Shown: one piece after another, positions 61,678 through 62,160 of the stretch
Position numbering within the stretch: the first letter of the stretch is position 1
How the letters are laid out: each line of letters starts with the position of its first letter
Assembly (NCBI GenBank): GCA_022711395.1
Contig: JAKLFA010000002.1
Coordinates: forward strand, 387,864 to 451,863
DNA from: Candidatus Omnitrophota bacterium
Lineage (GTDB): Bacteria > Omnitrophota > Gorgyraeia > Zapsychrales > JANLHA01
Direction of reading: 5' to 3'
DNA: 64,000 nucleotides
Program-made: the position numbers and the translations under genes
Notes under the pieces: model-generated
The model's input: only the letters and a program-made list of their open reading frames with translations
Database searches by the model: none
Told to the model about the DNA's origin: nothing

Positions 61678-62160
61678 TTATAAAGTCTTCTGTTCATAGA
61701 TCGCATCCAGTAATCCGTTATAGAACCCCATTTTTCTAAAAACACGGCTGCTCCACTCATACGTATCAGGATGATGGCGCTGGCCATCTTCACGGAGCGG
61801 AAGCTGTTCGATATAATTTAAACAGGCTTCCAGATCCTCCGCATATTCGATCGCGATAAAGCGTGACCGGCCGATCTTTATTGAAGGCTCTTCCCTGCTC
61901 GTTGATCTGACAAATTCCTCGAAACGGGCGTTGACATCATTTAGGAATTTTGTGGCCGGTTCAATGCCTTTTGAGAAGACGACTAGCGATATCATTTTCT
62001 CAAGCAAACAAAACCCGAAGACCCGGACCTGATATTTATCCTTAAGCCCTTTCAAGATCTTCAAATACAACTTAAAGTCCAGACGGCTTCGAAAGATCGG
62101 GCGAGCCCCGATCCGCCGAAGAACCACAAGATAACTGATCCCTCCCTGCAAATGCTCCAT
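61678..62160 (-). mobile_element. REP-associated tyrosine transposase (RAYT)/IS200-like Y1-transposase homologue with degenerate HuH motif
   Basis: 160 aa. YLVVLRRIGARPIF...KYQVRVFGFCLLEKMISLVV aligns to the RAYT ...AYCLMPNHVHLL region, but both His residues are replaced. C-terminal HPDTYEWSS matches the RAYT PxDYPWSS motif. Ends 15 nt before the RHS start. Confidence 0.6.

Follow-up and report, generated by a model that had tools for sequence, protein, structure and literature searches.

A 160-amino-acid (aa) protein encoded at positions 61678..62160, on the minus strand, of a 64,000-nucleotide (nt) stretch of Candidatus Omnitrophota assembly GCA_022711395.1 (contig JAKLFA010000002.1; the whole stretch is called the window below) belongs to the Y1 (HUH) transposase superfamily, in the branch that resembles the REP-associated tyrosine transposases (RAYTs), and is predicted to be catalytically dead. 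We refer to it as the Y1-like protein. Its gene lies between an upstream structured element of about 114 nt and a downstream gene for a giant TcdB/TcaC-type toxin with RHS repeats. A sequence-only reading of this DNA had described a 160-aa gene ending 15 nt before an RHS toxin gene on the same strand. The open reading frame (ORF), which starts with ATG and whose minus-strand orientation that reading had not given, is present as described, and the distance was essentially right: 14 nt to the GTG start of the toxin gene and 17 nt to an adjacent ATG at 61660. The core of that reading, a domesticated, HUH-less Y1/RAYT-like derivative that is linked to the toxin and is probably regulatory or DNA-binding, fits the evidence presented here, the regulatory role being the part that we infer. 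Our explanation, to which we give slightly less than an even chance, is that the protein is a domesticated, catalytically dead hairpin binder that regulates its own operon through the upstream element.

Searches with the Y1-like protein as a single sequence against Pfam, the PDB and PHROG returned nothing useful, including no match to PF01797, and the NCBIfam model REP_Tyr_transpos (NF047646) was matched below threshold (E=0.017; 15 bits, where the cutoff is 80), although the alignment runs end to end, pairing residues 8-137 with positions 10-146 of the 146 in the model. An identical protein is recorded from Candidatus Omnitrophota metagenome-assembled genomes (MAGs), and six orthologues share 75-100% identity with it. 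An exhaustive HMMER search that used six close orthologues as the query recovered 1176 representatives at E<=1e-3; against the PDB, the profile of the six sequences gave noise only. In an alignment of 48 sequences, 37 of the 48 relatives match Y1_Tnp (PF01797), and the profile of this alignment matches Escherichia coli TnpA-REP over its whole length (PDB 4ER8; E=1.6e-6). A profile made from the 39 nearest sequences matches proteins annotated as REP-associated tyrosine transposase or RayT, at about 1e-25 to 1e-29. AlphaFold2 run on the 39-sequence alignment returned a model with a predicted local distance difference test score (pLDDT) of 88.7, compared with 54 when the six close sequences were the input. 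The model has strands at residues 8-15, 46-52, 56-63 and 99-104 and helices at 26-40, 66-87 and 107-118, the last of which carries the tyrosine at the catalytic position; this is a beta-alpha-beta-beta-alpha-beta-alpha order and bears out the Y1-type N-terminal strand pattern proposed from the sequence; the proposed C-terminal signature HPDTYEWSS is likewise found, at residues 130-138. When the model was compared with the PDB using Foldseek, the 15 best matches were all TnpA of IS608, ISDra2 or IS200 or TnpA-REP, with the highest TM-score, 0.68 across all 160 columns, for 4ER8. The protein is basic, with an isoelectric point of 9.2. The single-sequence homology evidence for a Y1/RAYT relationship is weak, and it is the profile and structure evidence that is decisive. 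The protein does not qualify as a RAYT proper, given its sub-threshold scores, the lack of HUH and the lack of REP or REPIN repeats.

We compared the catalytic motifs in a 153-sequence alignment of representatives, 79 of which have both HUH histidines and 43 of which have neither. The strand that carries HUH reads GFCLLEKMISLVVF in the Y1-like protein and is aligned to A(Y/F)CLMPNHVHLL of canonical members, so that CLLEKMISLVV stands where canonical relatives have CLMPNHVHLLL and the H-x-H position is occupied by M56-I57-S58. This bears out the loss of HUH that had been proposed from the residues EKMIS. A motif in a shifted register is excluded because the only histidines of the protein are residues 3, 129 and 130, with none between residues 4 and 128. 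The tyrosine Y116 is kept; it is invariant in the six close orthologues and aligns with Y115 of E. coli TnpA-REP, for which Y115F is the catalytic mutant (PMC8266576). Four residues downstream, the canonical asparagine (YIxxNPV) is replaced by L120 (YIEQLPL); by analogy with Q131 of IS608, this asparagine would be the third metal ligand. Asn55, His56, His58 and Asn120 are thus all replaced. Because both HUH histidines, the asparagine that precedes them and the asparagine at Tyr+4 have been lost, the Y1-like protein should be unable to bind the catalytic metal or to cut DNA by the known mechanism.

These losses are correlated across the family. In the group with both histidines, the tyrosine is present in 77 of 79 sequences and the Tyr+4 asparagine in 75 of 79, as against 18 of 43 and 1 of 43 in the group with no histidine. 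Positions His11, Asn55 and Gly92 are 92-99% conserved when HUH is intact, whereas without the histidines the commonest residue found there accounts for just 21-47%. Even so, the no-His group retains F23, D28, C51, P121, Y134, W136, S137 and S138, and the YxWSS columns (YEWSS at 134-138 in the Y1-like protein) are 85-95% conserved in both groups alike. It has also gained conservation of its own: E118 is present in 95% of its members versus 49% of those with HUH intact, R142 in 86% versus less than 42%, and L151/D152 are also more strongly conserved. Correlated losses together with newly conserved residues are the signature of a new function on an old fold, not of decay. The proteins form a distinct HUH-less subfamily, found mainly in Omnitrophota-type assemblies. 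Y1 sequences lacking the core motifs were excluded as probably non-functional in the survey of Quentin et al. 2018 (PMC6006769).

Pairwise comparison of the gene in the window with those at L001 and L005 (loci of relatives are numbered L001 to L022) gave a nonsynonymous divergence, pN, of 0.125-0.167 and a synonymous divergence, pS, of 0.71-0.77, with synonymous sites saturated; strong purifying selection maintains the gene. The flanks are conserved chromosomal synteny in relatives, including those whose toxins are 62-79% identical: two-component genes, an HD protein, a helix-turn-helix-cupin gene and a FabD-type acyltransferase gene upstream, and a phosphoglucomutase (PGM) fusion downstream. 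The regional G+C content is inside the range of the window. The sequence-only reading had also offered that the gene could be a relic of the element that delivered the island, and the constraint, the synteny and the ordinary composition lead us to reject this. A decaying pseudogene of that kind would account for the lost catalytic residues, and Quentin et al. 2018 did take motif-less Y1 proteins as probably non-functional (PMC6006769). It is, however, already contradicted by the low pN at saturated pS, by an ORF that is intact in all lineages, by the conservation of subfamily-specific residues, by synteny kept on both sides and by the absence of any compositional anomaly or terminal repeats, and we consider it scarcely tenable. 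We think it equally improbable that the protein is still an active transposase or nuclease working through non-canonical metal ligands or through Y116 alone. The invariance of Y116 in the close orthologues and its alignment with the tyrosine of TnpA-REP (PMC8266576) speak for such activity; the replacement of all four residues named above, with no histidine available at residues 4-128, speaks against it, as do the failure of the subfamily as a whole to conserve the tyrosine and the occurrence of the gene as a single copy in the window with no REP or insertion sequence (IS) ends. A hidden Markov model (HMM) search of all ORFs in the window found only this one Y1-like ORF, and another ORF of 160 aa, at 18724-19206, was rejected as a paralogue.

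No repeated palindrome family of the REP kind occurs near the Y1-like gene, nor is any in the 64-kb window related to it. The sole repeated palindrome family in the window, AAAAAGGTGCCGGGCACTTTTT, was rejected as a REP family: it lies 46 kb away, at 13.5-16 kb, and is terminator-like. Its four copies, of 21-28 nt, fall within 2.5 kb (13526-15960) and look like bidirectional intrinsic terminators.

The structured element, which the sequence-only reading had not described, lies at 62355..62468 on the minus strand, as a single copy in the window, and its end is 194 nt upstream of the ATG of the Y1-like gene. It has a long closing helix, GAGGGCGGGUUAGU / GCUAAUCAGCCCUC (14 bp by RNAalifold). Enclosed by this helix are an inner hairpin whose apical loop reads (A)GGGGU and, before the 3' strand, an unpaired stretch, GGG(G)AUGAGG. 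The element is near-identical in L001 and L005 despite the saturation of synonymous sites. Across lineages it measures about 90-115 nt, and in all those for which upstream sequence is available it is found less than 200 nt before the gene. A covariance model built from four copies gave weak matches, of 13.7-18.1 bits, at L007, L009, L018 and L020; with default filters, the matches were on the sense strand only and about 20-120 nt upstream of Y1-like genes. In diverged copies the sequence of the closing helix is wholly different, reading GAGAAUGGGGGCAUGG / CCAUGCCCCCAUUCUU in L007 and forming a perfect 12-bp helix in L020. In the model-fitted alignment, 90.6% of cells were paired and 18 of 29 pairs showed compensatory changes, compared with 34-50% for slid controls. 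Independent folding of L007, L016, L018, L020 and L021, the copies in L016 and L021 having been located by eye, gave the same architecture with z scores of -3.5 to -6.2, whereas the regions upstream of HUH-intact and one-His relatives were unstructured (z of -0.4 to +1.8). Two loop motifs recur, (A)GGGGU in the apical loop of the inner hairpin and, immediately before the 3' strand of the closing helix, GGGG(A/G)U, and the fold is specific to the sense strand because of G-U pairs. No Rfam family was found in 61500-63300. We rejected the possibility that the element is a small ORF; the frame is unconserved and the changes between lineages are compensatory.

The tightest partner of the element is the Y1-like gene, because the two stay together where the toxin gene is absent (L020) or displaced (L018) and where the small gene that usually precedes the element is not adjacent (L016, L018 and L008). 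Directly upstream of the ATG, at 62161..62209 on the minus strand, is a second conserved block, CTTGGCTTTTCACCTTTCATTTTCACTGGTTTATGGATAGGAGCGTATT, which contains an AGGAG ribosome-binding site and a TTTTCAC direct repeat. The block is conserved in the alignment of the window, L001 and L005 and may be a promoter or operator.

On the other side of the gene, a homologue of the SpvB/TcdB/RHS toxin follows the no-His gene in seven of nine lineages, in which the Y1-like proteins are 25-80% identical to that of the window. An RHS homologue is downstream in the close orthologues L001-L006 (77-80% identity), in L008 (P0007, 34%), where a gap of 44 nt precedes a 2649-aa toxin at 40% identity, in L009 (P0009, 30%), in L011 (P0012, 30%), in L016/L017 (32%), with a toxin ORF of 2943 aa, in L021/L022 (P0014, 25%), with a 3042-aa toxin, and, three genes away, in L018 (26%). 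There is none in L020 (P0011, 29%), which has the same upstream synteny and exosortase genes on the other strand, and probably none in L007 (P0008, 28%), where the next gene on a 1.1-kb contig is on the opposite strand. The HUH-intact short relatives P0157 and P0159 and the one-His relative P0041 occur in unrelated contexts with no RHS gene adjacent. The RHS link is strong and specific to the HUH-less clade; it is frequent but not obligatory, since L020 has the gene without RHS. Co-transcription of the Y1-like and toxin genes is plausible from the 14-17 nt gap and the lack of any terminator-like match inside it: a terminator scan of 61300-63400 returned four terminator-like matches, none of them in this gap. 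The sigma-70 promoter and terminator scans gave matches at chance level.

On single-stranded DNA, Y1 transposases and RAYTs recognise hairpins flanking the genes that encode them (structures 2A6O and 4ER8; PMC8266576). In the mechanism that we propose, the Y1-like protein would have kept this ancestral recognition of a hairpin next to its own gene, as at the left ends of IS200/IS605 elements or at REP sequences. It would bind the upstream element without cleaving it, either as single-stranded or extruded DNA or as 5' leader RNA, and through this binding it would govern the expression of the transcription unit to which it belongs, one that would run across the terminator-free gap into the toxin gene. 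Overall, the locus would be a transposase-derived cis-regulatory pair consisting of a dead TnpA and a fossil hairpin. A negative plus-strand GC skew points to the sense strand as the template for lagging-strand synthesis, the usual site of hairpin presentation; this is compatible with the mechanism, not probative.

Several observations weigh against a hairpin-binding regulator of this kind. The protein and the element are linked by co-location only. With filters off, noise in the covariance-model search reached 15.7 bits, similar to the scores of the diverged copies; the regions were therefore also folded independently, and the case for those copies depends on their position together with that folding, not on scores alone. 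The window's own copy of the element folds with an unremarkable z of -0.7. At 60-85 nt within the closing helix, the element is much larger than the hairpins of IS608 or REP, and it has no conserved GTAG-like guide. It could instead act autonomously as an RNA leader, or represent the 3' end of the small gene that precedes it. The persistence of the gene in L020 with no RHS gene adjacent means that the toxin may not be the target. Finally, the sample of contexts is small, at about ten lineages; the metagenome scan returned four loci, and a search of genome contigs with a smaller alignment found just the known MAG.

Two further explanations were weighed. In one, which we consider unlikely, the Y1-like protein would work with the toxin at the protein level, as a chaperone, for example, or as a helper in assembly or export, and the element would be an independent cis-regulatory RNA (a leader, an attenuator or a processive-antitermination element) or a small RNA that shares the operon. 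Many Rhs toxins have dedicated upstream helpers, the pairing with RHS is tight and conserved in seven of the nine HUH-less lineages, often with gaps of 14-45 nt, and the conserved G-rich loops of the element could be recognised by something else. Such a role is harder to square with a basic protein that has a nucleic-acid-binding fold, with the gene and element staying together where RHS is not adjacent (L020) or is three genes away (L018), and with the Sec-type signal peptide that, by eye, the toxin carries itself. In the other, the protein would act in trans on targets unrelated to the toxin, for instance on hairpins elsewhere in the genome or in DNA or RNA metabolism, and the RHS adjacency would be inherited synteny with no functional tie. 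L020 and probably L007, which keep the gene and element with no downstream RHS, and the unrelated context of the one-His relative P0041 would fit this. The pairing nevertheless persists amid changing neighbours where the Y1-like protein has diverged to 25-34% identity and the toxin to about 40% (L008); this and the lack of a second copy of the element in the 64-kb window argue the other way, and we regard action in trans as quite improbable.

The toxin gene itself (53732..61663, minus strand) encodes 2643 aa with Pfam matches to SpvB, an FG-GAP/FG-GAP_3 propeller, TcdB_toxin_midN, RHS_repeat and Ig domains. The ATG at 61660 is better spaced than the GTG from an AAGGAG ribosome-binding site, and the N terminus, MMNRGRGRRVLRKAISAVMVCVLTGSSLFQEFNVYA, resembles a signal peptide by eye. 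The tip of the toxin (53732-54640, minus strand), about 300 aa after a DPDGHGW boundary, contains glycine-zipper membrane-like segments and a GFSQGG (GxSxG) motif, and has only sub-threshold matches to alpha/beta-hydrolases, thioesterases and phospholipases; it may be a toxin domain of the lipase or esterase kind. Directly after the toxin gene is an ORF of 124 aa (53351..53725, minus strand) with no family match, a candidate immunity gene by position only; ORFs of 98-131 aa occupy the same position in L001, L003 and L005. Further downstream, the intergenic region at 53214-53293 holds a tandem pair of 40-nt direct repeats that are 98% identical. The PGM fusion (48066-52088, minus strand; 1340 aa), which is the downstream neighbour of the toxin module in relatives, has a complete phosphoglucomutase/phosphomannomutase module (domains I-IV) in mid-protein, with long unannotated flanks.

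Read in the direction of transcription, the module comprises a protein of 500-600 aa, a protein of the 23S_rRNA_IVP type, an 80-aa secreted protein, the element, the Y1-like gene, the toxin gene and an ORF of about 120 aa. The first gene is represented by the C-terminal part (63232..63996, minus strand) of a protein of about 520-600 aa that is cut by the end of the window and has no Pfam match; neighbours of 501-601 aa are found at this position in L001-L005, L008, L016 and L020. The second (62819..63223, minus strand) encodes a 134-aa four-helix bundle of the 23S_rRNA_IVP family (PF05635, E=1.7e-27) that is weakly bAvd-like. A PF05635 homologue is at the equivalent place in L005 (9010-9402), and IVP-like ORFs, recognised by eye only, are present in L016 (3576-4013 and 4653-5111, upstream of the Y1-like gene) and in L018 (5346-5765, between the Y1-like and RHS genes), such that the module sometimes contains two copies of the family. 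A link with diversity-generating retroelements is unsupported, as no reverse transcriptase was seen near the 23S_rRNA_IVP-type gene. The third gene (62506..62748, minus strand) encodes the 80-aa protein, which has a signal peptide followed by the pattern DVYVT.KGKKYH..C...R...A..GY.PC.C and belongs to no Pfam family. Homologues that align with it are encoded in L001 (9436-9678), L005 (9481-9723), L009 (530-772), L020 (9570-9815) and L021 (9559-9822), and in the module this gene is the usual neighbour directly before the structured element.

Elsewhere in the window, the end of tRNA-Asn (17328-17400) is overlapped by an exact 43-nt direct repeat, located at 17380-17422 and 17704-17746, and a perfect 22-nt palindrome, CCTGCCTGCCGGCAGGCAGGGA, is present at 17146 and 17682. 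The interval 17146-17746 looks as if a tRNA had been partly duplicated here, perhaps as the scar of an old integration. Four tRNA-Ser genes (gct, gga, cga and tga) are spread over 13 kb at 31590-44797 with similar flanks (repeat families D2, D4 and D6), and a tRNA-Arg gene is located at 33842.

Y1/HUH transposases and RAYTs are textbook examples of hairpin-recognising, single-strand DNA enzymes, and members without the motif have been disregarded as non-functional (PMC6006769). The motif-less subfamily described here is clearly under selection and has conserved residues of its own, a covarying element and, usually, a link to a giant toxin. Our searches of the open-access literature turned up no account of an HUH-less Y1 subfamily that has a cognate structured element or is linked to TcdB/RHS (Rhs/Tc) toxins. 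If the protein binds the element, it would be the first TnpA-type transposase turned regulator, and the element is a candidate for a new structured RNA or DNA motif. The host phylum is poorly understood and possibly predatory or host-dependent, and the proposed regulation, if true, would give a handle on how Omnitrophota control large secreted toxins. In its broadest form, which we find doubtful but worth stating, the proposal is that a whole TnpA-type subfamily was exapted together with its fossil end-hairpin as a non-catalytic, structure-specific regulator that gates giant TcdB/RHS toxins in Omnitrophota, which would make it the TnpA counterpart of TldR and the motif of about 100 nt a new class of cis-regulatory RNA or DNA.

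The downstream gene has exactly the TcdB/TcaC-type architecture, in which a signal peptide, SpvB, a beta-propeller and RHS follow one another (Zhang et al. 2012, PMC3482391); the text of that survey, searched for 'transposase', 'IS200' and 'HUH', does not mention a Y1-transposase-like neighbour. With RAYTs and TnpA-REP (4ER8, NF047646 and class 2 of Quentin et al. 2018, PMC6006769), the Y1-like protein shares the fold, the length class, YxWSS and a tyrosine at the catalytic position, and its gene, like theirs, is single-copy, inherited vertically and fixed in the chromosome, and has a nucleic-acid hairpin beside it. It differs from them in lacking Asn-His-x-His (HUH) and the asparagine at Tyr+4 and in scoring far below curated thresholds; instead of repeated REP/REPIN palindromes there is one larger, branched, single-copy upstream element, and there is the link to a toxin gene. 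The TnpA proteins of the IS200/IS605 family (IS608, ISDra2 and IS200; 2A6O, 2VJV, 2XM3 and 2F4F) are the top Foldseek matches, and the order of element and then gene resembles their hairpin-bearing left end directly upstream of tnpA. Those elements are mobile, multi-copy and active, with short subterminal hairpins at both ends, whereas the Y1-like gene is present once, with a single element and in fixed synteny, and has lost the catalytic residues. The closest conceptual analogue is TldR, the nuclease-dead TnpB homologues that were exapted as RNA-guided transcription factors or repressors (10.1101/2023.11.30.569447). TldR derives from TnpB, of the RuvC family, rather than from TnpA, of the HUH family, and its guide-RNA function has been demonstrated, so that the relationship is one of analogy and not of membership. 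In both cases a protein of the IS200/IS605 world has lost catalysis; TldR has kept nucleic-acid-directed binding and a neighbouring structured non-coding partner and regulates adjacent genes, as we propose that the Y1-like protein would do.

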